IMG/VR virus record: IMGVR_UViG_3300032291_003679
Span: 94,022 to 158,021 of that record
Reading direction: 5' to 3' (one strand)
Length of the DNA stretch: 64,000 nucleotides
Source: a virus
The translations under genes and the position numbers were made by a program. The stretch's first letter is position 1, and every line of letters starts with the position of its first letter. Of the stretch, positions 1 through 54,484 are shown piece by piece. Under the pieces are notes generated by a model. That model saw only the letters and a list, made by a program, of their open reading frames with translations. It was not told the DNA's origin and made no database searches.

Positions 1-3000
1 ACCATTGACTGCAGTTCACTACCCGAGAATCGTGGCTCGTTACCCTTACTTGGGGTCCACACCGAACCCCTGTTCTGCGTGGCCGCTTCTAGGGTGTACG
101 CCAGGTCGGTAGCTTCGATTATTTTGTTGCGATTTTCTCTGGTATTAAGTTTTGGAAAACTCTTGTCGATAAATTCGTAAAGAGCCTCGTAGACGGCGTA
201 TTTTGGCCTCTTCATCTCCGTGTCGAACCTCTCGCCAGTATCAGATTCTTTCCATACCGATTTTGCGTCTGGAAGAACTCCATTGCGAATCATTTGAGCA
301 ATTGTTGCAGTAGGAATTCCTTTTCTTCTCCACGCATCATTGATTCCGATGGAATCCGTTCCAAAGGCTGATGAAAGTCGCTCCTGTAGACCCTTCTTCC
401 ATTCTTTTCTATCAATTCCAAGATAATCAAGAAGCGAATCAAGGTCGAAGTCTTCTATCGCGGTCTTGTCATCTCTGATTATTTCCCCAGAATCATCTAT
501 AGAGCCTTCTTCTGGCAGAAGCATGTCAAAAGATTCACCATAAAGGTCTATCTCTGCCTCAGAATCTCCTCTTGTTGCACTGTCTGGATAAAAACGGCCC
601 GAGGCTCTAAATTTAGATGTTTCACTTACTTCTCCAAGTTGAACATATTCCTCAGGGGTCATTGATTGATTTTCTTCAACATCAAACCAATATGGGAACG
701 CATCTTTGCCAAACGTTTCAATAATGAATCTGTCACGCATATTTGCGCGGCCAGCATTTTCAGATGCCAAATCAATTTGCGAAATGTCTTCTATGATGTC
801 GCCCTCTGGGGACTGCACTACTTTTTTGGCTTCATTTGCAGAAACTGGAGCAAAGTATCTCCACGCTGAAAGCTCTTTCTGCTTACCGAGTTCAGCAATC
901 AAGAGGCGCACAGCGTCGTGGTTGATTCCAGCATCTGGTTCTCTCATCTTTGCTGCGTTAGCAGGGCTCAACCCAAGCATCTTAGAGATTTCATCCCTTG
1001 TTGCTGGTCGTGACTGTGTCCACCTGATTGTCGAACCGTCTTCGGTATTAAAATTTTCTCTTGAAGTAAATTCTGTTGGGATTCTTATCGTGTCAGCAAG
1101 CTTGTCAATAGAGAGCATCCACGTTTCGGCCGACGGATTCTCGTTTTTGTTGTTGTCACTAATTTTGCCAATACGCACACGTTCTTGACGTGCTTTCATC
1201 GCTTTGCCAACGTTCTGCATTGCGCCGCGAGTGCGTGATTGACGCACCGGCACTGAAAGCGAGTCGTCATCTATGTCAATCGCTATGCCGCGCTTACGTA
1301 CGCCGTCCCATGCCTGCATGGCGAACTGAAGTGCTTGTCTGTTTTTGCTGGAGTTTGGGTCTCCGTTTATTCTCAATCCGGCGAGCTGTTGTGCGCTTAG
1401 GCTACCTCCGTAGATATTGCTTCCAGAAATTTTTCTGCTTCTACGTGTCAGGCGTCTGCTTCCATCGGTGGTTGCTCCACTAGACAGTGTCATTCCTAGA
1501 ACGTCGTCGATGTCACCTTCGTCAACTACTTCATCATCGTCGTCACCTTCTGGAAGTACGAAATCGTCTTCTCCAGGTTTTCCATCTTCACCGAATTCGT
1601 AATCTTCTTCATCAATTTCAGTAATGATGCCTTCAACTTCTTCAGAATCACCATCATCATCAACTGGTACAGGAACCACAATAACTTCGTCGTCTTTTTC
1701 ATCAGTAGGACGAGCTGGGAATCCATTTTCCAGTTCTGAAAGCGACATGGCATTAATTGCCTTGTACCAATCTGGAAGAGGAATCCCGTCCTTATCACCG
1801 AAGGCTCCTCTATCAAGCTCTGGTGGGATATGCCCATCTACAACAGCTTGCTTCATTGCATCACGTATTGCTTTTGTTCGCTCGTCATGCAAGTAATAAA
1901 AGAAACCAGCATTGCCTGGGTCTAACATTTCTTTTGCGCGGGAGAATGCAACATGGACTAGGTTTCCCTCTTCCATGAAGCCAATACCAGCTTCGCCTTG
2001 CGCCAAGTTGCTTGGAAGATTCTGGGACGGGTCTCCCATGTCTTCTGCTACTGCGACGAATCGAGACTCACGACCCTTAGAGAGCTGCATTGTTGTGATT
2101 TCAACATCTCCGCCCCCAGTCTTGGCCGCATCGCGCACTGCTTGAGCAATTTGTGCAAGTATCTCAGTGCTTTCTTCTAGGGTTTCACCTTTAATAACAA
2201 AACCGTCATAATGGCGACGCCCAGCCTGTCCTTCAATTCTAAAGCCACGCTCAGCTTCCTGCATTACTTCAATTTTGTCCTGAAGTCCAAGCTGAATGAT
2301 TGCTTTTTCAAGGTCCCTGCGGTATCTGCCGTTGTTTGAGCCGCGACCTCCTGGTGGAGTATTTACCTTTTGACTTCCGTCTGGCCTGTCTATTGGTCGA
2401 CCGGTGTCCACGCCGTCGCCGGTTATTATTATTCGACCAGTTGCTTTTCCTGGGGATTTGTCACTACCCCCTTCAATTTCAAGAGCAGCATAAACAGCTT
2501 GCTTAAACGTGTCGTCAACGTTGGGAATAATGAAAAGCTTTTCTCTCTGTGTTGATTTAGCTTTCCATGCGGACTTTTGTCTTCCGGCTATTTCTCTTAT
2601 TTGGTCAACACCAACATTCCAGTTATCGAGTTCCATCGTCTTGCGTTCTGGAATTAAAACTGCTGGGATTATGTCAATTTTTTCCTTGCCCTTGGCTTTG
2701 CCTTTTTCGTGAACCCCTTTAACGACGGTTCCCTGAAGGAGTTCTAGCATTCCCTTTGTGCCAAGAGCTTTGCCTGTTGGGTCATTCTTGGGTGGCTTCA
2801 TTATCAAGTTATAAGCAGAACGTGCTTGCTGATATCTTGCTTGACTAAGAGCCTTTTGTAGCGCGCCAGTTGTCCAGACGTTGCCTAGCCACCCAGATGC
2901 CTGTGGTTTACCGAATCGTGCAACATAATCTCGCTGCTGTTGTGGTGTTCGGTTAATAAAATCAAGATGCTTCGTAAAGGTAACTAGCTGCTCCCACTTG

Positions 3001-6000
3001 GATGCTGGAATAATTACTTCCGGCAACTTTGGCATGCCGCGTTCGTCTTTCTTAACAGCCCTGCTGTTAATGACGATATTAATAAACTTAAGAGCTTCGT
3101 TGATTATTTCGGCATTTGTTCTACACAAAATCATCGTCGGCAGATTTCCCTTGTCGGCCTCTTCGTATCTGTCGACTATTCTTCCTTCCTTTGGCGCGTA
3201 AAGTTTATCTCTTAATTCCTTAAGGGCTTTATCTTGCTCTCTTCTGCTTAGGGATGAAATATTTAGCTTCTCCGTGGGGGAAGAATATTTTTTCTCAATT
3301 TTAGCAATCAGGAGCTCTCGGGTTGCATCATCAAGTTCTTCAACAGGGAAATTTCCGCGTCTGTCTTCTTTTGGTAACAATGGGTCAAACTGTCTATTAA
3401 TGACCGTTTGTGCCTGACCCTTAACATGCTTCCATGCAACTGGTTGTGGAACCCCTTGCTTCGTTAGATGCAGGTTCTGTCCACCCAAAACAAGGTTTGT
3501 CGCATGACCGATAACTCCGCCGTATCTAAATGACTCAGTAATGCTCTGCGCATACTCCGGCTGTAGTGACTCAAGAATATTTTTTGAATCACGGAATGCG
3601 TAAACTGCTTGCCTGTCGTCGCCAACAATTATAATTGGAAGTTTATCCCTATTTCTATCAAGGACAGTTTCCAGAACTTCGTTAGTATCTTGCGATTCGT
3701 CAACCATAAAGGCACCGAGAGGATTCTCTGGTGTCGCTACTTTTTTGCGTAAAGTTGCTCTGGACGTTTTCCCGGCCTTGTCCGAAATCGTCGTAACAAT
3801 CCACTCTTCTCCATCGGCAACATACGTATCGCCTTCACTAAGAGATGACGGAATGGCGACTTTTGCTCTTGTCTGATTGCTTGAATGGGTAATTAAGCCT
3901 GGGTCTGTTCTTAGGTCTGGGTCCGTCAGCATCCAAAGTTTTGCTATTAGTTCCATTGATGGCATAACGTTAGAGTCACCATCTGAAATTTGGTCAACTA
4001 TCGACTGGACCGAATCAATCCATAGCTTTGGAATTGCGCTTTCCGGCAAAATGCTATCTACTCCGCCGGGCTTTTTCCCATGGCCGCGCGGCGTATCTAA
4101 GTCTTCTATGGCCTTTTTGGGCTGCATAAAATGTTGGGCAGTAACTTTTTCTTCTTTCGAAAGCCCCCATCTTCTGAGGGCGTTGGCAAGAAGGTCACCC
4201 ATTTCAGAAAACTCTACGAACTCACCGTTTGGAAGTTCGAATCCATCAACTTCTACTTCAACTTTTGTTTTTTTGCCTTTTTCATTAAGGACTGGCTTGC
4301 CTGTCGTGTCTACGACAGTTACCATCTTTTTTTTCTTTTTTTGGTTTGGCCACTTGTTTATTTCAAGATGTTTTACAAAATCTTCACCCGACTCAAGCAC
4401 TACCCATCCCAATGCCTCTAGGCCTGGGTCTTCGCCTACAAATGTTTCTATTGTTCCATCAAAAGTTTCCCTGACAAAGTTTTTACCAATCATCTTTTCG
4501 ACGTCTGGTGTTTCTTCTTCGCTTTTCCACTTCGGATTACGTCGCATGGACTTTTTGCTATCGCGGGATTTGTTTAGCATTACCAGCTTCCGGCGCATAC
4601 CTTTTCCATACCTGGCGTCACCTTGGCCAAGGCGTAGCGACCACTGCCACAATTTGTCCGTTGTTGCAATACCAGTGTTTTTGGGGAATTCAACTTCAGC
4701 TTCTAATTGGTTTTTAGTGTTAAACACCGTGTAGAAAATGTTGCCAGTTTTATTAGCTTTTGCTAAGTCTGCTACCGTTTCTTCAATCTTGTCTGCTGGT
4801 ATTTTGCTGAAATCAACACCGTAAGTATCTGACAGATACGCTAATTGTTCAGCCCTGCGGACATCGCCTTCTGGCCAGAGTTCAAACTCTCTCTGAAGGG
4901 CCCACGCAATGCTCTTTAGTGTTGTTGTTTTGCCCGTTCCTGCACCAGCAAGAACGCTGAAAACTGCTGGATTTCTTTTATGTATAAGCGACATTGCTAC
5001 AGCTATGATGTCACGCTGTTCGTTAGTTGGTTCGTCCTTAAGGGCGAACGCAAGCCCAAGAGAGACTTTCTCGTCTATCCGTTCAATGTCTGCGACACCT
5101 TTTTGTTTGCCCTTTGGTGTTCCACTAATCGGGCCATCTTGTTTGCCGCTAGCTAACGCACCAGACGGAGTTATAACAACGCCGTCCTTGTTTTTGGCTG
5201 GGAGCCCTTCGAGTGACCGAGCGAGTTCTCTTTCGGAAGGGCTTGATGGAACAAAATCGTCAAAAGCTTCGGAGTCAAGAAGGTCTTCTAGCGGTCCTAC
5301 TATTGTCGTTGTCGGTTTGATTGGTTCAATGTCTTCGTATCCTGCAAGCATTGGCACTTCATACCATGAGTCCTCTTTGCCCTTGCGCTCATCGTCAGGG
5401 ATGCCGGCAAGACGACGCATTGTTGCCGAACGGTTAAGCAAGTAGTCGTTTGCTTGCTGAGCCTGAACGATTGCTCTATGAATTGCGAGAGGGTCTGAAC
5501 GTAGCTTCTTTAGCCAGCTATTTAGGTACAAAAGATGGTCTTCGCGTACTGTTGGCTCCAGACCCATTGACCCCATTGCGAATGCTGAACCTATTTCTGC
5601 AATCAATTCTTCGAATGCGTACTGGTCATCGCCGAATTCACGGCCCAGAGTTCTGTTTAGTCTTGTTGGGTGAGATGTCCAGTGAATTGTCTCATGCATT
5701 GCCGTCCCATAGAATGCGAGGGCATTCTCAAACTGTTCAAATGCTGGCATGTGAATCTTGTCAGTGGATGGACGATAAAAGGCTTGCTGGCCTTTTGATT
5801 CGACAAATGCTGGACCTATTTCTTGGATTACGTTTTCAATATCCTGCAACCGCTGCTCTTGGTTGATGTCAGTATCTTCAACTTCGTAATACTTGTTAGG
5901 AAGATTAGAAACATCATCAACGTTGTATACGGTTTGAACAACGTAATAGCGACCCATCTGGATTGCTTGTCCATCAGCGTTTATTACAGTTCTGCCATCA

Positions 6001-8918
6001 CGTGGCACAAGAATAGAAACGCCGCGAGCACTAGCTCCAGGCTTTAATTTTCCGCCTAGTTTTTCCCATTGCGTTCTGCCTGCCCATCTGTTTGTTTTGT
6101 AGCCGCGACTTTGCGCAGTAAGCAAAAGGGCTAGCTGATTCATGCCCTGGTAAACACGATTTTTAGTTGGGTTACGCGCAAAGATTTCCGGGTTGCGCCA
6201 CGGCATCTTCCATTGTTTTGTTTTGTCAGGGTTATCAATTAAGTCTTGCAGGACTTCGATAATCTCCTCGGCCATTCTCTTGTACATTTCCGCAAGGATT
6301 GGAGAGTCTTCTGGTATTTCTGCTTTATCTGGAAGTTTTCCGGATGAAAGTGCAGCACTAATTGGGCCGTCAAATTTTCTTATCTCGTTGTTGGTTCTCT
6401 TGTTTTTTGACTTATTTAGATATTTTGCGTAACCGCTAGAAAGCTTTTGCTCAGGGTCGTCTGGTATTGCTACGAACTCTGGCTTTCGGCCGCGGGCAAG
6501 TTCGAGGTTCTCTCTATCCTGGTCTTGCTGCATGATGGACGTGACAAGGTCCCTATCAGGAGGGATGCGAACGAACCCTGGCTTTCGGCCGCGGGCAAGC
6601 GGAGTGCTTCTGTCGATGACTTCTGGCTTCTCGTCTGGTATCTCTACAAATTCTGGCTTTCGGCCTTGGGAAAGACGCGTATTTCTATCGAGAACCTGTG
6701 GTTGCTTCGGCTTTTTCTTAGGCTTATCTGCCTCCGCTATTTCGTCTTCAGCCATCTTCTCGACACGATTCATATACTTGTCAAGGTCAGCAATAGCCTT
6801 CTTTAGCTTCTTTATCTGGTCAGCGTCAGTAGCGCCGTCCAGCACTCCCTGTAGTTCGTCTCTTTGAGATTCTGCGGCACCGTATTTTTCGGCTGAATCA
6901 ACATCTGGGTCGTCTATTCGCGGAAGGTCTAGCGGGATTTTCCCTGAAGATAGACGCTCGGTCCGAGCAATAGTTTCTGATTCTGGCTTAGAAAGCTGAC
7001 GGGGTGACGGCTTTGGGTTACGAATTGAGCCAGGACCATCTGGAGTTGGGTCCGGAGTAGCAAGTGGGACGCCACGAAGGAATAGACCTTCACCGACGAC
7101 TCCGTTGAGGTTTGCGTCACGAGCTGTGAATGGGTCAAAGTCTTCTGCCCCGATTGAGGTAAAGAACCTTCCACGTGAACGACCGCCTCCAATGTTAGGA
7201 CGGTCGATTAGGCGACTGCCGATAGCGCGTCCGAGGCGGTAACCAGCCGCCTTCCACTCTATGTCATTCTCACCTAGAGATTTTTTTTTTAGATTATCAA
7301 CAGCCGTATCGATGGCTTCAATCAGCTCAAAGCTGACACCAGAGGTGATGACGATGCCGTTGACATCCACAAAGGAGTCGACATTGTGATAGTCAAAGAT
7401 TGGGTCTAGAGCTTGTTTTACTTGAAAGGCAAACTGAGGCACCACTGGAAGCAAGTATGGCTTCTGGTCGAAATTGTCATCTTTTGTTGAGCCAAACTCG
7501 CTGAGAAGCTTAAACTTACGACGCTTCTTGCGGCGTCTCCCAACAACTCCACGGAGTGCTGCAACTGCAAGTTCTCCTGGATACTTTACTTCCAGGTCAG
7601 CAATGTAGTCCTCTTCGTTGAATTCTTCGTCAAGTTCATAAGTCTTCTTAGATGCTGTGTCGCCGGTGACTACTCCCTTGGGAATTACGGCAAATCTGCA
7701 CTTGCCTTCTGGCTCGACATCCATGGCGATTATCTTGCAAGAATTTCCACCTTGGTAGAAGACGCAGTTTGCGCACTTAACGCCAATTGCAGCAACTGGG
7801 TTTTCAGCTGCAGGCTTATAGCCAGCCCAAACGCCGTCAGAATCCTCGTTGAAACGACCGTGGCGCTTAACAATCTTAAGAAGAGCATCTCTTAAGTCTG
7901 TTTCTTCTTGGTCGAGATTGTTTTTGTCAAACTCTGGCTGATTTCTTTCATCATCCATGTCTTCGTATTGGACGGGGGGCAGAGGAACCATACGGTTGCC
8001 GTTTTCTCCAGGCTTAATAGCAATTGGCATCGCCGGCATTTGTGATGGGCGAATCACTCTTTGTGGCTCATTTGCAGGGACACCAGGTGCCAGCATTGGC
8101 ATATTCTGCATTGGCGCAACTGGCTTGCGTGCTGGCATCACCACAATCTGCTGTGGTGGACCAAACATGTAGCGTCCGCGGTTCCCACTAAATCCGCACT
8201 TGTAGCGACCGACTTCACCATTGTCCATTCTGCGGGCAAATGTAATTTCGTCGTCGTTTACGTCCATCAGTGAAACTTTTGCACCAAGGATTGTAGCTAG
8301 TTGCTTTTCTATTTCAGCCTTGTCGATGGCGTCTTCGTCGTCTTCCATCATCGCCATCATGACGCCACTGGCGTTGTCGTCAGACTTAACTGAAATTGTT
8401 CCAGTAAGTTGATTTGCTCCATGTAAAACGGGCGAGACCTCGTAAAGTTCAAGTTCGTAAATAACGTTTGCTTGAGACTTTTGGTCAAACTGGGCCCGAA
8501 GGGTCTTGTATCCGATTGACCATTCCTGCTCTTCTCCAAAGAAAGCAACCATGGCAAAAGCTTCCCGACCTTTTTCTGAATTAAGGTTGAATTGCACACG
8601 GGCGAACAGGCCACCAATGCCAGCCATTTTCATCTTAAGTGGCAAGCGATTGTCCGTATTTGGAACTTCGTAAATCTCTAGAACTTTACCGATTGGGTCA
8701 TTCCAGCTATGTCCCCAGACAACTCGTGGCTTACGGCGTTGGAGGCTCTTGGCGAATGCTCCACTTGCAACAATGTCACCAACGGAGTCTTTGTTACCAA
8801 TACCAGCAACGAAACACTCAACTATGCCCTGAGCCTCATCAAGGTTGATGTTTCCGCCCTTCGAAGAGAGCGAGTTACCAAGCGAAGTTGACTTGTATTC
8901 GAATAGTTCAGATGGCAT
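1..8918 (-). CDS. Giant prohead-protease-fused polyvalent protein (>=2972 aa, runs off the left edge): HK97-type protease + HiPIP-like domain + ArdC-like ssDNA-binding/zincin module + SF1 (UvrD-like) helicase + unknown domain
   Basis: ATG at 8918 (MPSELFEYKS...) with GAAGGG upstream. Hand translation found no in-frame stop down to position 3, consistent with its absence from the ORF track. The frame is maintained across the A10 run at 7281-7290 (CTA AAA AAA AAA TCT). Confidence 0.85.
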   Translation of the reverse strand, partial: MPSELFEYKSTSLGNSLSSKGGNINLDEAQGIVECFVAGIGNKDSVGDIVASGAFAKSLQRRKPRVVWGHSWNDPIGKVLEIYEVPNTDNRLPLKMKMAGIGGLFARVQFNLNSEKGREAFAMVAFFGEEQEWSIGYKTLRAQFDQKSQANVIYELELYEVSPVLHGANQLTGTISVKSDDNASGVMMAMMEDDEDAIDKAEIEKQLATILGAKVSLMDVNDDEITFARRMDNGEVGRYKCGFSGNRGRYMFGPPQQIVVMPARKPVAPMQNMPMLAPGVPANEPQRVIRPSQMPAMPIAIKPGENGNRMVPLPPVQYEDMDDERNQPEFDKNNLDQEETDLRDALLKIVKRHGRFNEDSDGVWAGYKPAAENPVAAIGVKCANCVFYQGGNSCKIIAMDVEPEGKCRFAVIPKGVVTGDTASKKTYELDEEFNEEDYIADLEVKYPGELAVAALRGVVGRRRKKRRKFKLLSEFGSTKDDNFDQKPYLLPVVPQFAFQVKQALDPIFDYHNVDSFVDVNGIVITSGVSFELIEAIDTAVDNLKKKSLGENDIEWKAAGYRLGRAIGSRLIDRPNIGGGRSRGRFFTSIGAEDFDPFTARDANLNGVVGEGLFLRGVPLATPDPTPDGPGSIRNPKPSPRQLSKPESETIARTERLSSGKIPLDLPRIDDPDVDSAEKYGAAESQRDELQGVLDGATDADQIKKLKKAIADLDKYMNRVEKMAEDEIAEADKPKKKPKQPQVLDRNTRLSQGRKPEFVEIPDEKPEVIDRSTPLARGRKPGFVRIPPDRDLVTSIMQQDQDRENLELARGRKPEFVAIPDDPEQKLSSGYAKYLNKSKNKRTNNEIRKFDGPISAALSSGKLPDKAEIPEDSPILAEMYKRMAEEIIEVLQDLIDNPDKTKQWKMPWRNPEIFARNPTKNRVYQGMNQLALLLTAQSRGYKTNRWAGRTQWEKLGGKLKPGASARGVSILVPRDGRTVINADGQAIQMGRYYVVQTVYNVDDVSNLPNKYYEVEDTDINQEQRLQDIENVIQEIGPAFVESKGQQAFYRPSTDKIHMPAFEQFENALAFYGTAMHETIHWTSHPTRLNRTLGREFGDDQYAFEELIAEIGSAFAMGSMGLEPTVREDHLLYLNSWLKKLRSDPLAIHRAIVQAQQANDYLLNRSATMRRLAGIPDDERKGKEDSWYEVPMLAGYEDIEPIKPTTTIVGPLEDLLDSEAFDDFVPSSPSERELARSLEGLPAKNKDGVVITPSGALASGKQDGPISGTPKGKQKGVADIERIDEKVSLGLAFALKDEPTNEQRDIIAVAMSLIHKRNPAVFSVLAGAGTGKTTTLKSIAWALQREFELWPEGDVRRAEQLAYLSDTYGVDFSKIPADKIEETVADLAKANKTGNIFYTVFNTKNQLEAEVEFPKNTGIATTDKLWQWSLRLGQGDARYGKGMRRKLVMLNKSRDSKKSMRRNPKWKSEEETPDVEKMIGKNFVRETFDGTIETFVGEDPGLEALGWVVLESGEDFVKHLEINKWPNQKKKKKMVTVVDTTGKPVLNEKGKKTKVEVEVDGFELPNGEFVEFSEMGDLLANALRRWGLSKEEKVTAQHFMQPKKAIEDLDTPRGHGKKPGGVDSILPESAIPKLWIDSVQSIVDQISDGDSNVMPSMELIAKLWMLTDPDLRTDPGLITHSSNQTRAKVAIPSSLSEGDTYVADGEEWIVTTISDKAGKTSRATLRKKVATPENPLGAFMVDESQDTNEVLETVLDRNRDKLPIIIVGDDRQAVYAFRDSKNILESLQPEYAQSITESFRYGGVIGHATNLVLGGQNLHLTKQGVPQPVAWKHVKGQAQTVINRQFDPLLPKEDRRGNFPVEELDDATRELLIAKIEKKYSSPTEKLNISSLSRREQDKALKELRDKLYAPKEGRIVDRYEEADKGNLPTMILCRTNAEIINEALKFINIVINSRAVKKDERGMPKLPEVIIPASKWEQLVTFTKHLDFINRTPQQQRDYVARFGKPQASGWLGNVWTTGALQKALSQARYQQARSAYNLIMKPPKNDPTGKALGTKGMLELLQGTVVKGVHEKGKAKGKEKIDIIPAVLIPERKTMELDNWNVGVDQIREIAGRQKSAWKAKSTQREKLFIIPNVDDTFKQAVYAALEIEGGSDKSPGKATGRIIITGDGVDTGRPIDRPDGSQKVNTPPGGRGSNNGRYRRDLEKAIIQLGLQDKIEVMQEAERGFRIEGQAGRRHYDGFVIKGETLEESTEILAQIAQAVRDAAKTGGGDVEITTMQLSKGRESRFVAVAEDMGDPSQNLPSNLAQGEAGIGFMEEGNLVHVAFSRAKEMLDPGNAGFFYYLHDERTKAIRDAMKQAVVDGHIPPELDRGAFGDKDGIPLPDWYKAINAMSLSELENGFPARPTDEKDDEVIVVPVPVDDDGDSEEVEGIITEIDEEDYEFGEDGKPGEDDFVLPEGDDDDEVVDEGDIDDVLGMTLSSGATTDGSRRLTRRSRKISGSNIYGGSLSAQQLAGLRINGDPNSSKNRQALQFAMQAWDGVRKRGIAIDIDDDSLSVPVRQSRTRGAMQNVGKAMKARQERVRIGKISDNNKNENPSAETWMLSIDKLADTIRIPTEFTSRENFNTEDGSTIRWTQSRPATRDEISKMLGLSPANAAKMREPDAGINHDAVRLLIAELGKQKELSAWRYFAPVSANEAKKVVQSPEGDIIEDISQIDLASENAGRANMRDRFIIETFGKDAFPYWFDVEENQSMTPEEYVQLGEVSETSKFRASGRFYPDSATRGDSEAEIDLYGESFDMLLPEEGSIDDSGEIIRDDKTAIEDFDLDSLLDYLGIDRKEWKKGLQERLSSAFGTDSIGINDAWRRKGIPTATIAQMIRNGVLPDAKSVWKESDTGERFDTEMKRPKYAVYEALYEFIDKSFPKLNTRENRNKIIEATDLAYTLEAATQNRGSVWTPSKGNEPRFSGSELQSM
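1925..5040 (-). other. Superfamily 1 (UvrD/Rep-like) helicase domain with large insertions, within the giant ORF
   Basis: Q motif TNEQ; Walker A AGAGTGKT (about 4926-4950); DESQD (3687-3701); VGDDRQAVYAFR; TESFR; ILCRTN; TMQLSKGRE; LVHVAFSRAK. Confidence 0.9.
5430..6295 (-). other. ArdC-like module (ssDNA-binding N-domain + zincin metallopeptidase) within the giant ORF
   Basis: WKMPWRNP...ARNPTKNRVYQGMNQLALLL...RWAGRTQW, then AFYRPSTDKIHMP...FYGTAMHETIHWT (HExxH at 5682-5696)...RLNR...YAFEELIAEIGSAF...YLNSWLKKL. Confidence 0.88.
6462..6690 (-). repeat. Three copies of the peptide repeat L[SA][QR]GRKP[EG]FVxIP[DP] in the giant ORF linker
   Basis: DNA repeat ctggctttcggccgcgggcaag at about 6479-6500 and 6578-6599, plus a variant ctggctttcggccttggg at about 6653-6670. 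Confidence 0.85.
7281..7290 (-). other. A10 homopolymer, a candidate slippage/frameshift site between the protease part and the cargo part
   Basis: Ten T on the + strand. The -1 frame stops at 7270-7272 (TGA) and the +1 frame stops at 7274-7276 (TAG). Confidence 0.5.
7690..7830 (-). other. HiPIP-like 4-Cys domain within the giant ORF
   Basis: AGYKPAAENPVAAIGVKCANCVFYQGGNSCKIIAMDVEPEGKCRF: C-x2-C-x8-C-x12-C with an upstream Tyr, as in small HiPIPs. Confidence 0.6.
8385..8860 (-). other. HK97-family prohead (maturation) protease domain of the giant ORF
   Basis: GNKDSVGDIVASGAFAKSL, catalytic His in VVWGHSW, catalytic Ser in EWSIGY, ELYEVSPVLHGAN; lies directly downstream of the portal. Confidence 0.92.
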
Positions 8919-9049: not shown

Positions 9050-11155
9050 TTAAACAGTCTGCCCAAAACCCCAAGCCGCCCTGGTTTCCCGCTCCGCGAA
9101 AGAGTCTTGTTGATGAGCGAAAAACTCCGTAAACATCTCTACAAGTCCGTCTCGGAAGAAAGAGAATCTCTTTTCCTCGTCCGCATACTCAAAAGATTTG
9201 AGCATTAGTGAATTTATTTCACTGAAGTGTGACTCGTTAATCTTTTTGATTCTTGCAACATGAGCATCAATCATTGCTCGAACATCTTTTGCGGGCAGTG
9301 CCTTTACTCTGAGGCCCTTCTCCGATGCTTCGTTCACTCGTGACTCAAACGAGTCATTGATAATTGAAGAAATAACCGGCCTGATGTCTTCATCAAATTG
9401 CTTGTTCCATGTGTCTATGGACAGAACCGATTCGATGTCAAGAGTTCCATGCATTAGTGCTTTTTTGGACTTTAGTCCGCTTGCTTTTTCAAGAACTACC
9501 CGCTGCTGGCGCTCCATGACTCTTTCTACTCCGCGTGAGAGAATGTTGGTCCAACGCTCAATCGATTGTTCATTTCTATCGACTGATTCTTTTTCTGAAT
9601 CATCAGACTTTGTCTCAATCTCAGATTCTGGGGATGAAGCGACCGTTGTTGGTGCTGGAGGCATTGCTGTCTGCGGTATCCCGCCGAAAGCCTCTGGTGG
9701 AACAGTTGTTTGCGCAAGCTGTCCTTCTGCTGCTGTCTCGGCAAGAGCACCAGCCATTGTGTTCGTATCGAGCGGCATGACTTCTCCGCCTGGAGGAATA
9801 GGTGCTGGGGCACCTGGAGGCATTCCTGGCATACCTGGGGGCATTCCTGGCATTCCTGGCATTCCTGGCATTCCTGGCATTCCTGGTGCTCCTGGAATCT
9901 GTGTTTGTCCCTCTTCCATCTTCTTTTTGGTATTGGCGATAGGAATGAGGTTTGGATTTTGCAGCAGAGAGTCAGCAAGGTCTGCTTCTACTTCTTTGCG
10001 TGAAGAACCCATTCTGTATTCGTTTGCGCTGATAAGACCAGACTGGAACTCTTGGAGAAGGTATTTGTCTCTCTCTTGCTTATAAAGCATAAGGATTGGC
10101 ACTTCGGACGTATCAAAATCTAAATAGAATTTTTCATCAAGTTCGTCAAGGCCACGAGCCAATGGCTCTAGGTGAGGAAGCATTGTCTCCATCCAGAAAA
10201 CACGAATTTCTTCAGCTGCGTTACTAAATGTTCTTCCTGCAGCATTTCCGATAACTGATTCCGGGACACCGAAGGATGAAAGAATTTCTTCTTTTGTTAT
10301 CTGTCGCATCTGAATATATGCAGCATCACGCGGGTTCGCGGAAGTATCAACAAAATCCACCCCATCGTCTGCTGCAATAACCGTCGTATGGCCTGCTTTT
10401 GCAAGATTTCCACGGAATCTGCTTCTTAGCTCTTCCTTGTCGTCCTCGTCAATTGCGCCCCTAACGACCAAAAGTCCACCAGGGCGGCCATCGTTTAGGA
10501 GGTAGTTGCGGTTATAAAGTTTGGCTAGGTTTTCAATTTCAATTGCTACGCCAGCTGCCTCTAGGGGTGTTAGAGACAGGTATGGGTCAAGTGGATGAGG
10601 TCTTCTTATCCAGCAAACATCTTCTGGCTTGAGAATTCTTTTTTCTCCATATGGCATCTGCACTTCATAGCCAGATACAAAAGTTTTAGGGTCGGGGATT
10701 GGGGCTGTTGATTGGGGCGGAAGAAGGTTGAGCGCGATGATGCGACCATCTCGCCCAAATATTTTCTCAATAAATGCGCCGCGAGTTCCAAGAAGCAACT
10801 GGGCAGAAAGCCTGTATCTGAATATAAAGGAGTTTTCTCCAACATTTGCTTTATTATTCAGAAGCTCCAGAAGGGTTGAGCGATTTGCTTCTCTACCTAC
10901 AACTATTTCGCCCTTATTTGAGTTGTTTTTTCTGAGAATTATTGGAAGTCGCGCTTGGTTGCCAGCGATTGCATCAATACACCTGTTAACCCAGGTGATT
11001 TTTGACATTCCTTCACGGTAGGCGCGCTCAATATCCCAAGAGTCACGGTATGCCTTCCCAGCAAGAGATGGGTTAATGGAGATAGGCGCTCCATACCCAA
11101 CGTCCTTTCTGGACTGGGAATTTATGTTTTTGTTTTGAGGTGCGTTCCAAGCCAT
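9050..11155 (-). CDS. HK97-family portal protein with a Pro/Gly/Met linker and a C-terminal MuF-like helical extension
   Basis: WVNRCIDAIA, QLLLGTRGAFIE, LSLTPLEAA, NDGRPGGLL, EILSSFGVPESVIG, TFSNAAEE; position between terminase and protease. Confidence 0.92.
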   Translation of the reverse strand: MAWNAPQNKNINSQSRKDVGYGAPISINPSLAGKAYRDSWDIERAYREGMSKITWVNRCIDAIAGNQARLPIILRKNNSNKGEIVVGREANRSTLLELLNNKANVGENSFIFRYRLSAQLLLGTRGAFIEKIFGRDGRIIALNLLPPQSTAPIPDPKTFVSGYEVQMPYGEKRILKPEDVCWIRRPHPLDPYLSLTPLEAAGVAIEIENLAKLYNRNYLLNDGRPGGLLVVRGAIDEDDKEELRSRFRGNLAKAGHTTVIAADDGVDFVDTSANPRDAAYIQMRQITKEEILSSFGVPESVIGNAAGRTFSNAAEEIRVFWMETMLPHLEPLARGLDELDEKFYLDFDTSEVPILMLYKQERDKYLLQEFQSGLISANEYRMGSSRKEVEADLADSLLQNPNLIPIANTKKKMEEGQTQIPGAPGMPGMPGMPGMPGMPPGMPGMPPGAPAPIPPGGEVMPLDTNTMAGALAETAAEGQLAQTTVPPEAFGGIPQTAMPPAPTTVASSPESEIETKSDDSEKESVDRNEQSIERWTNILSRGVERVMERQQRVVLEKASGLKSKKALMHGTLDIESVLSIDTWNKQFDEDIRPVISSIINDSFESRVNEASEKGLRVKALPAKDVRAMIDAHVARIKKINESHFSEINSLMLKSFEYADEEKRFSFFRDGLVEMFTEFFAHQQDSFAERETRAAWGFGQTV
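9840..9884. repeat. Five tandem 9-mers GGCATTCCT encoding (PGM)n in the portal linker
   Basis: Direct reading of the sequence. Confidence 0.95.
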
Positions 11156-25780: not shown

Positions 25781-28700
25781 ATGGCAGACGAAAACGTCGA
25801 CATTAAGATTAGGTTTGACGCCAAAACGGCGGACCTTAATCGTGCCATCGCAAAACTTGCTGTACTAGAAAAACAAGTAAAGAAGCTCTCCAGCGGTAGA
25901 GAAGAAGCGTTTGCGCGACGAACAACAAACACCCTTAGCAATGTAACCAAGGGCTGGAAGCGTAGTTTTGACTTCATAGATGCCGGTGCAAAAATGGCCG
26001 GTAAGGGACTCACCAAGTTTCTTGGATTAGCCATAAAGGGTGTAGTCGTAGAAATGGGGCTCCTGGCTGCAGCAATGGTTGGCGTCCACGCACTGTTTGT
26101 CGCTGGCCAATTTATAATGAAGGCGTACCGAGGGGCAATGCAAATGCTGGCGGCAGGCGCAGCTGGTGTAACAGTCGCTATGGCTGCTGCGTCTGCAGCA
26201 ATCCGTGAGCAGCAGGCTGCAATATTTGCCTATAGAGGCAAGGGTGCTCCGGCTTTTGGTTCAGCAATGAACCAGACCCGCATGGGGATGCGCAACCTTC
26301 AAAGCGATGCAAGTTTAGCGACTTTAGGTGTCGAGGCATTAAATAAGGCCTACGGCAATATGTCGAAGTCAATGAATACTGCCCAGATAAATAAAAGCGG
26401 CGGTGCAATAAAAGCATTGATGGATTTTGGCTCCGCTGGTCAAGACCCTGCAAAAGGACTAGAACAGGTATCGATAGTAATAGCATCTTTGTCTGATAAG
26501 AAAAAGGGAATTTCAGATGTCATAACAGAGGCCAAAAAGCTTGGCCCAGAGATGGAGCAGGCCCTAAAAAAAGCCAACGTTAAGACAAAGAAGCAATTTC
26601 AAGAATTGCTCATGTCTGGGGAGCTTGCTAAAAGCGGTGGCGTTACGGGCCAGTTTGATGCCGTAAATGGCACCCTAATTAGTCAACTAAAAGGATACTT
26701 CACTCGCCTGCGTGGTGAGTTTGCAGACTTTGGTGACCAGTTCCTAGAACCGCTAAAGGAAGCTTTCGACCGAGTCTTTGGAACAATCAGACGTGACTTA
26801 CAGCGCGTAATGGGCGCTATCATGTTCAGCTTTGGCACCCAGGGTGTTATTGATAATTTTTCAAGTGCTATAGAAAAAGCATCTAACTGGCTCGTAAAAA
26901 TGATTCGCGAATATCTGCCTGGAGCTATAGGCATGTTCGACAGAATCGGTGATTGGTTTACTAGATTTAAGCGCGGGTGGAACCTTGTACTTGACCAAAC
27001 CAGACCGCTCATAGACGGTGCTCGCGTTCTTTACAAAGCATTTGAGCCAGTTTGGGACGCGCTGAAGCGTGGGGCAGACAACTTAACCCTGTTTCGCGAA
27101 CTGCTTATACAAAACCAAGACAATGTTCAAGAATTTGGTGAACGTATTGGGAAACTGATTGATTCACTTTCTAAGTTCTTCATGAACATGAAGAAAATGT
27201 TTATGGATATGCTTCCGTTCCTTAACGACCTTGTCTCTGGCCTGACGACAGTGTTTGACATGATTTCCAAGATATTTACTTCCGGCGCAGGCAAAGGTCT
27301 AGCTGGAGCGCTTGCCCCTCTTATGGGGTTTTCTATTTTGGGAAGAGCTCTTTCTGGAGTAAAGGGACGCCTAATGCCGAACGTTGGCGCAATGTCCGCA
27401 CAGCAAATGAATGTAACGGCAAACAACGTTTCTATCGCCAACCCAGTTGGTCCAGTGGCGGGGTCGCGAACAATGTTTGGCGGTGGACCACTTTTTTCTG
27501 GGGCACCTGGCAGCTATCCGTCTGGACCATCTGGGACACCTGGAGCAACATCATCTGCAGGAACAGCAACAGCAGCAGGTAGTGCAGCGCTTGCTGCTCT
27601 CTCGTCGGGCAAAACTTCTGGTGGAAACTTTTTAAAGATGCCAAGCGGAGGAGCAGTAAGCAAACTTGCAGACAATCCACGCAACACACTTAGATACAAC
27701 ATGCTCACTGGAAGCAGGATGACGGTTCGCGGGAGCGATATAAATCAACGAGAAAAAGAACGGTTTACTCAACGCCAACAATTGGGACGTGGCCTTGGCT
27801 ATTACATGTTCGGTCAAGCTTCTAACCCATACGCGAAAATGGAAGGAGATGCAGCAGCTCGTGCCTCCGCCCGCTTTGAGGCAACACAGGGGCTGCAGAG
27901 CCTGTCTATGGACGAGCTACATAAAGTAGCGGTAGATAAACATGGAATTACTGGGTTGACCGATAAGACATCACGTACAGACGTAATTGCACGAATACAA
28001 GGTTCTGCTGGGTATAAAGATGAAGATTACGCCGGAATGAGGAAGGTAGGACTCGGAGAGGCGATTAAAAACACGAGAGGAAGAATGCGCTTTGCCGCTA
28101 CGGGGGTAATGGATAGGGCACAGTATGCAGGAAGACGTGTTTCTGGGGCATACCAAGGAGCCATGGCTTACTTTAATTCTGGTGCATTTAATCCTGAAAC
28201 AGGTGAATATTACGACCTTAAAGATGCTCGTGACAAAATAGATGAGCGGTTCCAGAAAACCAAAGATGAAGCTGGTGGCAGTAAAAGAAAACTTCTTAGA
28301 GGAAGAATAGATAGGGCAAGAGATTCAAACAGGCTTAACAGAACGTATGGAAAATTTGGCAACGCATACAATGTGAAGTTTGCTAAAAGCGCCAGCGGAC
28401 GTATGGGTGCAGGCATGGGTCTTGGTCTAATGAGCCAAGTCGCTCCAGAAGAAATGCGTGGAGCAATGGCGCTGGGTGCAACTGTTGGACAAATCGACCC
28501 ACGTTTGGGAATTGCTGTTGCCGGAATAGGCGGAGCCATGAAGGCTCAGGGAGCAATGAAGGGTGCCCTCTCTGGCGCTGCTGGTGGAGCTGCTTTAGGC
28601 GGAATGCTTGGACCGCATGGAGCAGCAATCGGTGCCGGAATCGGTCTTGTTGTTGGCGGCATTATGGGTGCCGTTAATAAGGGAAAACAGCAGCTAAAAG

Positions 28701-30586
28701 AAGCCAGGGAAACTGTACACAAGAGTCTTGGCGAGTTTTACATGGCTAGCCTGAAGTCGTCAGGCGAACAGTTTGAAAAAAACCGTAAGATTCTTGAATC
28801 CGGCGGGAGCCTCGAAGGCAAATCTGGAGCTATGCAGGGAGCTGGAGCCAAATTTGCAGCCGCACAAGGGAAGGTGCGCACTTCAATACTTTCAGCCATA
28901 GAAGCAGGGGGCGGAGGGTATGGAAGCGGTGGCGACAGGGAATTCTATGACCCCAAAAAAATACTTGACGAATATTACAAAACTGAAGAGGGAAGCAAAG
29001 TATCTACTGAGGATAGAAAGAAACAAAAAAAACGTGCCACAAATACGGTTCGTGAACTTCTTAAAGCAACCGACCCAGCAGTGCAGACGCAGCTCAAGGA
29101 AATTGACAAAGTCAACAACGACAGAATAGCTGCCCTTTCCCGCGCAACAGGAAAGAGTGGAGCAGAGTTAGAGCAATTAGCAAAAAGTATGGGCGTGGAC
29201 CTATATGACGCAACGGTCCAATATGACGAACTTCTTGGGAAATTTACTGCGAATCTCAGGAAAAACAAGGAGCAATTAAATGCCGCTCTTACTGATACCT
29301 TTCTATCTGGAGCTAATCCTTTTACGAAAAAACGAGAAGCAGGAGAAGCGCAGTATGCGCTAAACCAAAACTTTAGACAACTTGGCGACATTCTTCGTGG
29401 CGGCGGCACTAAAGCAGAAAAAATGGGTGCTGTCGACTCCAGTATGGAGCAAGCATTCAGTCAGATACTAACGGTTGCTGGTGGCGATGCTTTTAAGGCA
29501 TACGACATATATAACAGAATGTTTATGTCTGGTGCAGACCAGGGAATATTTGCTCAAGGTGCAGAATTTGAAGGCCAATCAGAACATTTCCTCGGAAATG
29601 CAACATTTAATGAATCTTCTAGATTAATTACAGAGGGAGTTAACTCTGAAGCAGCAACGCAAATTCGTGGCTATCTCGCAGAGAAGAACATGAGCGTTGA
29701 CACTGGATTGCTAGAAGCGTCTCTAAACAAGATGACACCAGACCAGCAACGGAGTCTTCTTTATGACCTCAAAACAATGGATGAGGACACAAGTGTTCCA
29801 AAAGCTGGCGAGACAAACGACCTAAAAAAGGCCCTTAAGAGAAAAACAGGGGGCGGAATAGAGCAGGTCTTGGCTACCGCCTATGGCCTTGAGGGAATAG
29901 CAATTACTGGTGAAAAAACTGAGAGCCTGGACAAGATAGCAACAGCCGCCACAGACTTCTCTACCGCTGCAGACGGTCTCAAAACAGCAGTCGAAACATT
30001 CAATACCAACATGACTGGATTCTTCGACGCCCCTCTCGGTAATGCACCGGAATGGTGGAAAAAAGGACTGAAAGTTACCGGCGAAGGTGATGACATGCGC
30101 CTCATGCCAGACGCAGACACATCTACTCCTCGTGCAGGACAAGTTGGCGATACTGCCACAAGCAAGCTTTCTCAAACAATGTCCCGTCATGCTGCGATGA
30201 ACGGTCAGCTAACAGGTAAAAGAACAGTTACATCGAGCCTGCGAAACTATGCGCTTGGTTCACCAAGTTCCGACCACGCAACTGGTTCAGCATATGACCT
30301 CACTGGACAAAATCTTGGACAATACGCCAAGCTTGTTCATGCCAACGGTGGGTTTGCTGAGTTCCATGGAAGCATGGCGAATAGGCATCTACACGTAGTC
30401 CCAGGCCCAGGAGTTGGGGATACCAGCACCTCCCGGCCAATTTCATCCGTAACTACCGGCGGTGGGGGAACAACGAATTACTATTCAATCGAGATAAATG
30501 GTGGAAATGCCTCTCCAGAAGCAATCGCAAACATGGTAATGGCAAAACTAAAAGACCAGGAACGCTCAAACAGGGAGCGCAGATAA
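25781..30586 (+). CDS. Tape measure protein with a C-terminal M15-like (LAS) peptidase domain
   Basis: 1601 aa, A/G-rich helical, follows the chaperone; VTSSLR...SDHATGSAYDL...HLHV near the C-terminus. Confidence 0.9.
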   Translation: MADENVDIKIRFDAKTADLNRAIAKLAVLEKQVKKLSSGREEAFARRTTNTLSNVTKGWKRSFDFIDAGAKMAGKGLTKFLGLAIKGVVVEMGLLAAAMVGVHALFVAGQFIMKAYRGAMQMLAAGAAGVTVAMAAASAAIREQQAAIFAYRGKGAPAFGSAMNQTRMGMRNLQSDASLATLGVEALNKAYGNMSKSMNTAQINKSGGAIKALMDFGSAGQDPAKGLEQVSIVIASLSDKKKGISDVITEAKKLGPEMEQALKKANVKTKKQFQELLMSGELAKSGGVTGQFDAVNGTLISQLKGYFTRLRGEFADFGDQFLEPLKEAFDRVFGTIRRDLQRVMGAIMFSFGTQGVIDNFSSAIEKASNWLVKMIREYLPGAIGMFDRIGDWFTRFKRGWNLVLDQTRPLIDGARVLYKAFEPVWDALKRGADNLTLFRELLIQNQDNVQEFGERIGKLIDSLSKFFMNMKKMFMDMLPFLNDLVSGLTTVFDMISKIFTSGAGKGLAGALAPLMGFSILGRALSGVKGRLMPNVGAMSAQQMNVTANNVSIANPVGPVAGSRTMFGGGPLFSGAPGSYPSGPSGTPGATSSAGTATAAGSAALAALSSGKTSGGNFLKMPSGGAVSKLADNPRNTLRYNMLTGSRMTVRGSDINQREKERFTQRQQLGRGLGYYMFGQASNPYAKMEGDAAARASARFEATQGLQSLSMDELHKVAVDKHGITGLTDKTSRTDVIARIQGSAGYKDEDYAGMRKVGLGEAIKNTRGRMRFAATGVMDRAQYAGRRVSGAYQGAMAYFNSGAFNPETGEYYDLKDARDKIDERFQKTKDEAGGSKRKLLRGRIDRARDSNRLNRTYGKFGNAYNVKFAKSASGRMGAGMGLGLMSQVAPEEMRGAMALGATVGQIDPRLGIAVAGIGGAMKAQGAMKGALSGAAGGAALGGMLGPHGAAIGAGIGLVVGGIMGAVNKGKQQLKEARETVHKSLGEFYMASLKSSGEQFEKNRKILESGGSLEGKSGAMQGAGAKFAAAQGKVRTSILSAIEAGGGGYGSGGDREFYDPKKILDEYYKTEEGSKVSTEDRKKQKKRATNTVRELLKATDPAVQTQLKEIDKVNNDRIAALSRATGKSGAELEQLAKSMGVDLYDATVQYDELLGKFTANLRKNKEQLNAALTDTFLSGANPFTKKREAGEAQYALNQNFRQLGDILRGGGTKAEKMGAVDSSMEQAFSQILTVAGGDAFKAYDIYNRMFMSGADQGIFAQGAEFEGQSEHFLGNATFNESSRLITEGVNSEAATQIRGYLAEKNMSVDTGLLEASLNKMTPDQQRSLLYDLKTMDEDTSVPKAGETNDLKKALKRKTGGGIEQVLATAYGLEGIAITGEKTESLDKIATAATDFSTAADGLKTAVETFNTNMTGFFDAPLGNAPEWWKKGLKVTGEGDDMRLMPDADTSTPRAGQVGDTATSKLSQTMSRHAAMNGQLTGKRTVTSSLRNYALGSPSSDHATGSAYDLTGQNLGQYAKLVHANGGFAEFHGSMANRHLHVVPGPGVGDTSTSRPISSVTTGGGGTTNYYSIEINGGNASPEAIANMVMAKLKDQERSNRERR

Positions 30587-47968: not shown

Positions 47969-49645
47969 CTATGAATTAATTATAATTTTTGTGCTTGACT
48001 GCAAAGCCTGTGTCAGTCCAGAAGTATCAGTAATGATAATTATACCGCCTTCTCTGCCCTGGGTTCCGGCATTGCCAGCCGCTCCGGCATTGCCAGCCGC
48101 TCCATTATTCCCAGCGTTTCCTGGATTTCCTGCAAGACCCTTTGGTCCGTTTGTTCCAGGATTACCAGCGTTGCCCGCTACACCAGCATTGCCAGCTGCT
48201 CCAGCGGTGCCTCCAGCAATATGATGCTGGTGAGCTGTGTGAGATGCGTTGGAGTTTGCGTAATGGAAAGTATTTGGGTTGTGACCACTTACATAATTAT
48301 ATGAATGATGGTGCCCTAATCCAATTAAAAAGTGGGCAACGTTTGCTGGCACAGAACCACGTGGCCACACCCTGTTTGCTGCAGCGCCAGTATAATGGAA
48401 GGCGTGAGAGCTCCCGCGGTGCGAATGTCGAGGGAAGTGCCCAGAGTTTGATTCGTTGGCAGGGCGACCTGGCGTGCCTCCAAATGTTCTCATGTGTCCA
48501 TAACCGTTGAGTGCCCCATCGAATGCGTGCGCCACGGCGTGGTTTGGGTTCGAACCAGCAGGGTGGCCATAGTTGTGAAAACCCGAGTCGTGAGCATGAA
48601 CATACGTGTCACCGCTACCACCAGCATTTCCAGCAGCCCCAGGGTTTGCTACACCAGGATTGCCAGCCGTGGCTCCAGTGCCATTAGTTCCATCAGCACC
48701 TGCGTTACCAGCATTAGCCCCAGTGCCTGCGCTCCCTGCATTTCCAGCAACTCCATTTGTACCAGATTGCCCGACGCTGATAATTGTTCCAGAACCAGAA
48801 ATTGTTTTTGCAACAATCAAAACAATCGGACCGCCTACACCTCCTACGCCGTTGGAACCAGCATTTCCAGCATTTCCAGCATTTCCCGCAGTCCCACCAG
48901 CGCCGTTGGTGCCAGCATTGCCTGGGTTGCCTGCAGCGCCGGCTGAACCGCCATGTCCTGTGCCGTTAGTGCCCGCATTGCCATTGTTGGCAACATGATG
49001 AGGGCTGTGCCAGTTGTAGTAAACACCAGAACCGCCATGAGCATAGTGCCAGTGACCAGGCAACCCAGTAGTTCCACCTGCTGTTGCGCCACTTCCTCCG
49101 TGACCACCAGTCCCTGCGCTTCCTGCTGCGCCTGCCCCCCCAGCCGTCGCTCCAGTTCCTGCGTTTCCTGCTGCTCCTACTCCCCCTGAACCTCCGGAAG
49201 TCGCACCAGTACCATCTGCTCCTTTATCTCCACCACTGAACTGGCGAACTATTCCTGCATTGTCTACAAAATATCCGGTAATCGCAGTTTCTAAATTGTG
49301 AAGAACACTCAGCGGCAAAGGGTTACTGGAAGTCTGGCTGATGCTGTATGTTGCAACCGAAGAAGCCTGGCCTGCGACAGTTCCGGTGTTTATGGGTGTT
49401 GTGTAACCCACAGAAGCACCTATTGTGCCATTGTTTACGAGTTCTCCCTTAACAAAAACACGGAATCCGTTAGTAATAAAAGTACAGCTGCTGTTAATGG
49501 TCAACGAGTTGTAGTACATGTCTCGCGTGATTACGGTAGGAGTACCAGTGTTGGACACAACTACGTTCCCATCGCTACCGTTACCATAAACGGAGTCATT
49601 ACCTATTCTTTGTTCGTATACCTTATTAAATTTTTCAATATACAT
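47969..49645 (-). CDS. Gly-rich (G-X-X repeat) virion/adhesin-like protein with two His-rich loops
   Basis: (GNA/GAA/GTN)n tracts flanking His/aromatic-rich inserts. Confidence 0.8.
   Translation of the reverse strand: MYIEKFNKVYEQRIGNDSVYGNGSDGNVVVSNTGTPTVITRDMYYNSLTINSSCTFITNGFRVFVKGELVNNGTIGASVGYTTPINTGTVAGQASSVATYSISQTSSNPLPLSVLHNLETAITGYFVDNAGIVRQFSGGDKGADGTGATSGGSGGVGAAGNAGTGATAGGAGAAGSAGTGGHGGSGATAGGTTGLPGHWHYAHGGSGVYYNWHSPHHVANNGNAGTNGTGHGGSAGAAGNPGNAGTNGAGGTAGNAGNAGNAGSNGVGGVGGPIVLIVAKTISGSGTIISVGQSGTNGVAGNAGSAGTGANAGNAGADGTNGTGATAGNPGVANPGAAGNAGGSGDTYVHAHDSGFHNYGHPAGSNPNHAVAHAFDGALNGYGHMRTFGGTPGRPANESNSGHFPRHSHRGSSHAFHYTGAAANRVWPRGSVPANVAHFLIGLGHHHSYNYVSGHNPNTFHYANSNASHTAHQHHIAGGTAGAAGNAGVAGNAGNPGTNGPKGLAGNPGNAGNNGAAGNAGAAGNAGTQGREGGIIIITDTSGLTQALQSSTKIIINS

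Positions 49646-50716: not shown

Positions 50717-54484
<3,768 letters not shown>

Follow-up and report, generated by a model that had tools for sequence, protein, structure and literature searches.

S78 proteases, polyvalent proteins and the short cleavage codes of prohead proteases (T4, phiKZ-like phages) are already known, and in polyvalent proteins processing was assigned to a zincin metallopeptidase (MPTase) by Iyer, Burroughs, Anand, de Souza and Aravind (2017, PMC5512222). Here we describe a locus that touches on all three: a minus-strand open reading frame (ORF) of 3,020 amino acids (aa) in a 64,000-nucleotide stretch of viral DNA (the window; positions 94,022 to 158,021 of IMG/VR virus record IMGVR_UViG_3300032291_003679), in which the peptide LSSG recurs at the joints between modules. 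The record is the complete genome of an uncultured phage, 158,021 bp long and bounded by direct terminal repeats, and the ORF joins S78, ArdC-N, MPTase-PolyVal and UvrD-type helicase domains in one chain, the multi-domain make-up by which polyvalent proteins are recognised. We give an even chance to the reading that the motif is a processing signal recognised in trans by a phage protease, most likely the N-terminal S78 domain.

Polyvalent proteins are likewise giant polypeptides with ArdC-N, zincin MPTase and helicase domains, encoded among late or virion genes and predicted to be delivered together with the DNA and cut. In contrast, PMC5512222 names no junction peptide (the word 'linker' is absent from its text), whereas the four-residue code described here is common to several proteins of one genome. 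The assemblin-like peptidase of polyvalent proteins also tends, though not strictly, to be C-terminal, whereas here it is N-terminal in 73 of 73 homologues retaining it. A second parallel is offered by T4 gp21, acting on IPI-III and Alt, and by gp245 of phiKZ and SPN3US, whose SPN3US form has head and ejection proteins as substrates and cleaves them behind A-X-E, the P3-P1 residues (PMC10052503). In each, one capsid protease of the same fold class processes several packaged proteins at a short P3/P1 consensus (L/I-x-E in T4, A-x-E in phiKZ and SPN3US), and the substrates are ejected into the host; LSSG, shared by four proteins, resembles such a consensus. Those cuts mostly remove N-terminal propeptides from single proteins, with Glu at P1 and substrates in the head, whereas here the sites part whole polyprotein modules, Ser would stand at P1, the protease is itself the first module of a substrate, and a protein in tape-measure position carries conserved sites. 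Phage P1 provides a precedent for an anti-restriction protein that is packaged in the head and cut by a prohead protease, namely DarA, which is cut by Pro during head assembly (PMC12810830), although the Dar proteins are encoded by separate genes and no repeated junction motif has been described for them.

Beyond phages, herpesvirus pUL26 is an N-terminal capsid protease in one chain with downstream parts, and it processes itself at two defined sites, R and M (PMC4498786). Unlike here, what follows the protease is the scaffold without any cargo enzyme, and other proteins have no sites. RNA-virus polyproteins (3C/3CL, NS3) also combine one protease with one short code per joint, in unrelated enzymes and genomes and as an analogy only. 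The herpesvirus assemblin consensus, said to go back to Welch et al. in 1991, reportedly reads (V/L/I)-X-A with the cut before S, a hydrophobic P3 and a small P1 as in L-S-S before G. In the literature searched we found no protease heading a cargo chain, no lineage-retuned, Ser-based four-residue joint code and no use of such a code across several giants and a tape measure. The searches also yielded no published cleavage consensus for S78 and no relevant publication linking LSSG with phage and protease.

Enrichment of LSSG and its placement at module joints

In our own greedy ORF call of the genome (194 proteins, 49,277 aa), we count 22 copies of LSSG where 1.55 are expected (Poisson 3e-18), and every copy lies in one of four proteins longer than 1,500 aa (0.33 expected; maximum of three in 2,000 shuffles of these four). 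The protein of 3,479 aa carries eleven, that of 2,391 aa five, the 3,020-aa protein four and a 1,601-aa protein two, with none in the other 190 proteins (1.24 expected). Among four-residue words, collagen-like triplet repeats alone exceed LSSG in enrichment. The original prediction, made from the letters of the window, had anticipated a genome-wide excess, and its rough estimate of 0.1 chance copies per 3,000 aa is close to the 0.06 that we computed from the composition of the 3,020-aa protein. All eight motif positions that it listed there translate as claimed on the minus strand, and the four LSSG copies do use different codons (four distinct strings). The looser pattern that it had drawn from them, L[SA][SQR]G, is at background in the 190 other proteins (5 observed against 5.1 expected), and we therefore limit the signal to LSSG and LASG.

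A protein search returned 82 metagenomic homologues of the 3,020-aa protein, 1.8-5 kaa in length, most of which start with the same S78 domain. At least three copies of LSSG are present in 59 of the 73 homologues with a full S78 domain, rising to 17 in a single protein, where about 0.1 would be expected in each. The 466 unique sites give the consensus [R/K/S]-L-S-S-G-[R/K/A] in polar, disorder-type flanks that have diverged among relatives. Conserved domains are largely avoided: across 80 homologues, five of 523 copies fall within segments of five domains that make up 57% of residues, versus 300 expected. The original prediction, which noticed no copy inside the folded domains, overlooked an LAQG at aa 2305 (1995-2006, minus strand), which fits the loose pattern, lies inside the helicase family match and is probably not a site.

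Placement follows the modules. The ArdC-zincin cassette ranges from about aa 720 to aa 3237 among relatives, with a site 7-32 aa upstream of it in most homologues, whatever its place in the chain. Alignment of the collinear relatives places the sites at aa 656, 857, 1255 and 2478 in common columns, and that at aa 826 is kept in most, so that the joints before ArdC, the helicase and the last domain are conserved, as had been expected of homologue linkers. The site at aa 857 reads FSSG or LASG in some relatives; that at aa 2478 is aligned LSSG in nearly all collinear relatives and FSSG in one clade (the F clade). LASG at aa 1255 is a true variant of LSSG because many relatives read LSSG in that column, with F[AS]SG in the F clade. 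Some pairs of sites are 7-30 aa apart, and the median inter-site fragment across the family is 200 aa. In an AlphaFold2 model of aa 601-1300, the positions 656, 749, 774 and 1255 fall in segments with a predicted local distance difference test (pLDDT) score below 50, in keeping with the claim that all sites lie in linkers, which mostly holds; sites 826 and 857 lie in coil but in blocks with a pLDDT of 67-79 that form an N-terminal extension of the ArdC module. At the level of sequence, these results support LSSG/LASG as a protein-level motif, placed at module joints, conserved in position and common to other giants in trans.

Two neighbouring variants that had been counted as part of the motif, LSQG and LARG, are not supported. 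Both belong to a local repeat, L-x-x-G-R-K-P-E-F-V-x-I-P-D, with three copies here, one each in four relatives (P0002, P0003, P0012 and P0017) and none in the other relatives among the 21 aligned, and its two LARG copies share one codon string. The third residue of the repeat's LxxG is never Ser, whereas a third-place Ser is kept by every lineage's version of the motif. As parts of a young local repeat whose third residue is not Ser, LSQG and LARG are doubtful as sites. P0002, which is 96% identical to the 3,020-aa protein and 58 aa shorter, has a single copy of the repeat, indicating a very recent expansion inside the linker (6489-6674). We also set aside LSSK at aa 17, in a variable, gapped and unconserved stretch; LSSA at aa 2848, inside a stretch aligned as the C-terminal domain; and RLASGR at aa 209 of a 676-aa head-module protein (genome 81831-83861, minus strand), which fits the extended consensus and is not kept in homologues of the G clade described below.

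Lineage versions of the motif and its candidate reader

Protease-headed giants without LSSG are enriched in other words, namely FSSG, GLAS, GFAS and GMAS, to which IMG/VR relatives add GFSS and GLRS; the core common to all versions is [L/F/M]-[S/A/R]-S. In each of two genomes the local version recurs in separate proteins. In the P0035 genome the protease giant contains four copies of F[SA]SG and the next giant (2,483 aa) four of FSSG, and the P0075 genome has R-x-G-L-A-S 15 times in its protease giant, three times in the next giant and in none of 11 other genes. (Searched against IMG/VR, the whole P0075 protein gave no match and its N-terminal 220 aa did.)

The change extends to the 1,601-aa protein, which we label a tape measure because of its gene position and its Gly-zipper. 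In most of the 120 homologues listed, to about 40% identity, [L/F/M][S/A]SG is kept at aa 36 and at about aa 565-610, and in five G-clade genomes the homologue shows a closely related word, G-[L/F/M]-x-S, near the same two positions. The GLRS lineage illustrates this best: its tape-measure homologue carries GMRS and GLRS and its protease giant carries GLRS eight times; the homologue has GLAS and GFAS in the GFAS lineage, and GMSS, at the second place only, in the GMAS lineage. Motif class also follows the groups of the S78-domain tree, in which the F clade and the G clade are each single (support 99 and 97, respectively). The concerted retuning of the motif in proteins from separate genes speaks for a phage-encoded, lineage-specific reader acting in trans. 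The same tail-module carrier contradicts the expected confinement of the motif to virion-internal (head) proteins.

The S78 prohead protease is the best and most likely candidate for this reader. It stands at the N-terminus in 73 of 73 homologues whose N-terminus is retained. The zincin is less constant: PF18818 was not found in ten G-clade contigs encoding giants with the variant motif G-[L/F/M]-x-S, including G001 (132 kb, 88% complete) and G007 (136 kb, 91% complete), GFAS lineages occur both with and without it, and two polyvalent proteins with a zincin and no S78 (P0082 and P0083) have no enriched motif. A complex prediction pairing the S78 domain (aa 1-200) with the linker at aa 636-680 scored 0.00 and is evidence neither way.

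Under this reading, the processing motif would take the form [L/F/M]-[S/A]-S-G, usually [R/K/S]-L-S-S-G-[R/K/A]. The protease-mid module (aa 1-655) would carry a cargo chain of ArdC-N with zincin, SF1 (superfamily 1) helicase and C-terminal domain, and the same signal would mark the 3,479-aa and 2,391-aa giants and two spots of the tape-measure-position protein. If S78 acts like other capsid proteases of its fold, such as SPN3US gp245, the hydrophobic residue would occupy P3 and the invariant Ser P1, with the cut falling between Ser and Gly. Cleavage after L-x-S at each joint would then yield products of about 658 aa (1-658, protease and mid region), 170 aa (659-828), 31 aa (829-859), 398 aa (860-1257, ArdC and zincin), 1,223 aa (1258-2480, helicase) and 540 aa (2481-3020). 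From gene position and the precedents of P1 DarA and polyvalent proteins, we infer that the cargo would be loaded into the capsid and injected into the host; within this genome, the one support for packaging and delivery with the DNA is the position of the gene in the head module.

Several observations weigh against S78 as the reader. The usual substrates of a prohead protease, here the capsid protein, the portal and the adjoining 523-aa protein, lack the motif. A tape measure is assembled outside the head, beyond the reach expected of a capsid-confined protease. None of the ten contigs in which no zincin was found is complete, and PF18818 could miss a diverged zincin; in the LSSG clade, every homologue that retains the S78 head also has PF18818, making the zincin a candidate there too. 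The agreement between motif class and the S78 tree is equally expected from shared descent of whole genomes, and the predicted structure of the mid region did not give a scaffold-like fold.

Tentatively, and with rather more doubt than confidence, we suggest that a widespread family of uncultured contractile-tailed phages (>570 IMG/VR relatives) may handle polyproteins much as RNA viruses do: a capsid protease would head a chain of cargo, a lineage-retuned four-residue code would let any enzyme cassette be inserted between joints and released, and the same protease would mature the tape measure, so that head cargo and tail assembly would depend on a single enzyme. If the sites are cut, a simple, readable rule would predict from sequence which mature proteins hundreds of uncultured phages inject into their hosts, and would explain the swapping of cassettes of anti-defence enzymes (ArdC, helicases, nucleases, sigma-like domains). 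The site that S78-type proteases recognise would become defined, and a portable pair of protease and site might be a useful tool. Cleavage would also bear on which enzyme processes the polyvalent proteins of Iyer et al. and which cuts tape-measure proteins.

Other possible readers and roles

Of the alternatives, the one that survives best, though we hold it unlikely, is that cleavage falls to a different protease, which would belong to the host or be a phage enzyme not yet recognised. An enzyme outside the prohead would fit both the sites in the tape measure and the siteless capsid, portal and neighbouring head proteins, and an unrecognised protease is possible given that about 87% of phage protein families are without known function. 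What speaks against a host reader is that, within each phage lineage, the changes of the motif are concerted and its F and G classes follow the phage's own protease tree; a host enzyme would need equally frequent changes of specificity. As for other phage enzymes, this genome has no match to ClpP, S49 or Trypsin_2; a search for S77 was uninformative, its control having matched nothing.

It is improbable, and a little more so, that the reader is the zincin MPTase-PolyVal of the same polyprotein, acting in the cytoplasm or after injection. Iyer et al. (2017, PMC5512222) proposed an autoprocessing role for this domain, it accompanies S78 throughout the LSSG clade with its HExxH intact, and as a soluble, unconfined enzyme it could reach a tail protein, which would explain the tape-measure sites. 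Besides the variant-motif lineages without a recognisable zincin, and the zincin-bearing P0082 and P0083 without the motif, it counts against this reading that the zincin is itself a site-flanked, movable cassette, like other cargo.

The original prediction had offered a sorting tag as the alternative to a protease recognition site. Sequence patterns fit the recognition site of a phage-encoded reader, and the tag fits them less well; we consider an uncut motif, whether it serves as a tag in docking or sorting (to load the capsid or to pass the portal and tail) or as a site of Ser modification by a phage enzyme, to be the least probable of the serious alternatives. The invariant third-place Ser would suit a modification site, and a phage-encoded modifying or binding partner would also produce change in step. 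However, as many as 17 copies in one protein, set precisely at joints, go far beyond the needs of targeting, the copies in a tail protein speak against a capsid-loading tag, and site pairs 7-30 aa apart would release tiny spacer peptides, a spacing that fits cutting better than docking. Chance, low complexity or a DNA-level repeat, to which the young duplication behind LSQG and the LARG pair with its shared codon string does belong, is refuted for LSSG and LASG by the enrichment, the differing LSSG codons, the diverged flanks of the 466 unique sites and the failure of Tandem Repeats Finder to report anything at 6300-7000.

The giant gene and its surroundings

Coordinates are collected in Table 1. 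The start codon of the giant gene is at window position 8918, and the gene runs 144 nucleotides (nt) beyond the window start. PF04586 matched its N-terminus with 44.2 bits (cut-off 21), and a six-frame search of the genome found a single copy (49.8 bits); the genome likewise has one zincin, with an intact HExxH. Residues H70, S134, E160 and H166 of S78 are invariant or near-invariant (73 and 30 aligned homologues), and, in line with the family at large, we take the His and Ser to be catalytic.

Table 1. Positions of the giant gene, its modules and motif sites, and the tape-measure-position gene (window coordinates unless marked as genome).
Feature	Position	Strand	Remarks
Giant gene, 3,020 aa	1..8918; genome 93877-102939	-	last 48 codons precede window start
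S78 (HK97-type) prohead serine protease, aa 26-190	8349..8843	-	PF04586 3e-11; phrog_80
Conserved 'mid' region, aa 191-655	6954..8348	-	no family assigned
LSSG site A, aa 656	6942..6953	-	first joint past protease-mid module; position kept in relatives
Local repeat with LSQG (6663-6674) and LARG (6588-6599, 6489-6500)	6489..6674	-	doubtful sites
LSSG site B, aa 826	6432..6443	-	most close relatives keep LSSG, a few have lost it
LSSG site C, aa 857	6339..6350	-	20 aa before ArdC-N; S-G invariant in 23 aligned sequences
ArdC-N + zincin MPTase-PolyVal cassette, aa 877-1168	5415..6290	-	PF08401 7.5e-17; PF18818 3.8e-40; phrog_7245
LASG site D, aa 1255	5145..5156	-	joint before helicase; S-G invariant
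UvrD/SF1-type helicase module, about aa 1290-2340, then acidic tail	1899..5051	-	PF00580, PF13245, phrog_1967
LSSG site E, aa 2478	1476..1487	-	joint of acidic tail and C-terminal domain
C-terminal conserved domain, aa 2481-3020	1..1475	-	no family assigned
1,601-aa protein, Gly-zipper	25781..30586	+	tape-measure position, downstream of sheath gene
LSSG in 1,601-aa protein, aa 36	25886-25897	+
LSSG in 1,601-aa protein, aa 607	27599-27610	+

The mid region accompanies the protease in every case. It comprises a basic patch, a four-Cys cluster and a small alpha+beta domain; its predicted fold (aa 190-660) has a mean pLDDT of 56.5, with best structural matches at Z <=6.8 (cystatin, NTF2, VirB8-like cones) that are uninformative, and we can only infer for it a scaffold or anchoring role. 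The four-Cys cluster, C-x2-C...C...C (aa 409-435; window about 7610-7700, minus strand), is near-invariant in relatives and is likely to be a metal-binding mini-domain beside the protease. For the C-terminal domain, an ESM Atlas search gave no usable match. One IMG/VR relative (L140:9959-20613) has the protease-mid module as a separate 474-aa ORF that overlaps a 3,090-aa ORF in another frame by 37 nt, an arrangement that may reflect a split gene or a frameshift, whether programmed or due to sequencing; the enriched word in the 3,090-aa ORF is STRS, in ten copies.

The portal gene (phrog_2662, window 9050-11155) lies directly upstream of the giant gene and the large terminase gene further upstream, and the order of portal then S78, as befits a head-module protease, is repeated in L007, L009, L010 and many IMG/VR loci. 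The capsid protein gene is about 14 kb downstream of the giant gene, and its product aligns from residue 8. A tail sheath gene indicates a contractile tail; two small ORFs between it and the 1,601-aa gene had no family match. Megablast found no close cultured relative, and the capsid protein and terminase share 42-47% identity with counterparts in Gordonia and Brevibacterium phages. In Gordonia phage Chidiebere the head-module genes are separate, the enriched peptide is a known tail-fibre repeat and the LSSG code was not found; by BLASTP, its tape measure showed no significant similarity to the 1,601-aa protein.

Of the remaining carriers, the 3,479-aa giant (genome 58545-68984, minus strand) has a DEDD/RNase T-type exonuclease, which occupies aa 760-1000 with a site on either side. 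Its other ten or so inter-site modules had no family match; apart from the exonuclease, Pfam, PHROGs and NCBIfam matched nothing in the 3,479-aa and 2,391-aa giants, and a sequence search of the PDB with both gave no match.

Repeats of other kinds occur in the window. The portal protein (minus strand) contains P-G-M-P repeats, four here and up to seven in relatives, and the portal of one relative has a weak match to Pfam Collagen. Two proteins of 1,245 aa (window 50717-54454, minus strand) and 558 aa (47969-49645, minus strand) are full of collagen-like G-A-T-G/G-P-T-G triplets (85 and 16 words, respectively). Both are probably fibres and fall in the stretch of highest G+C.

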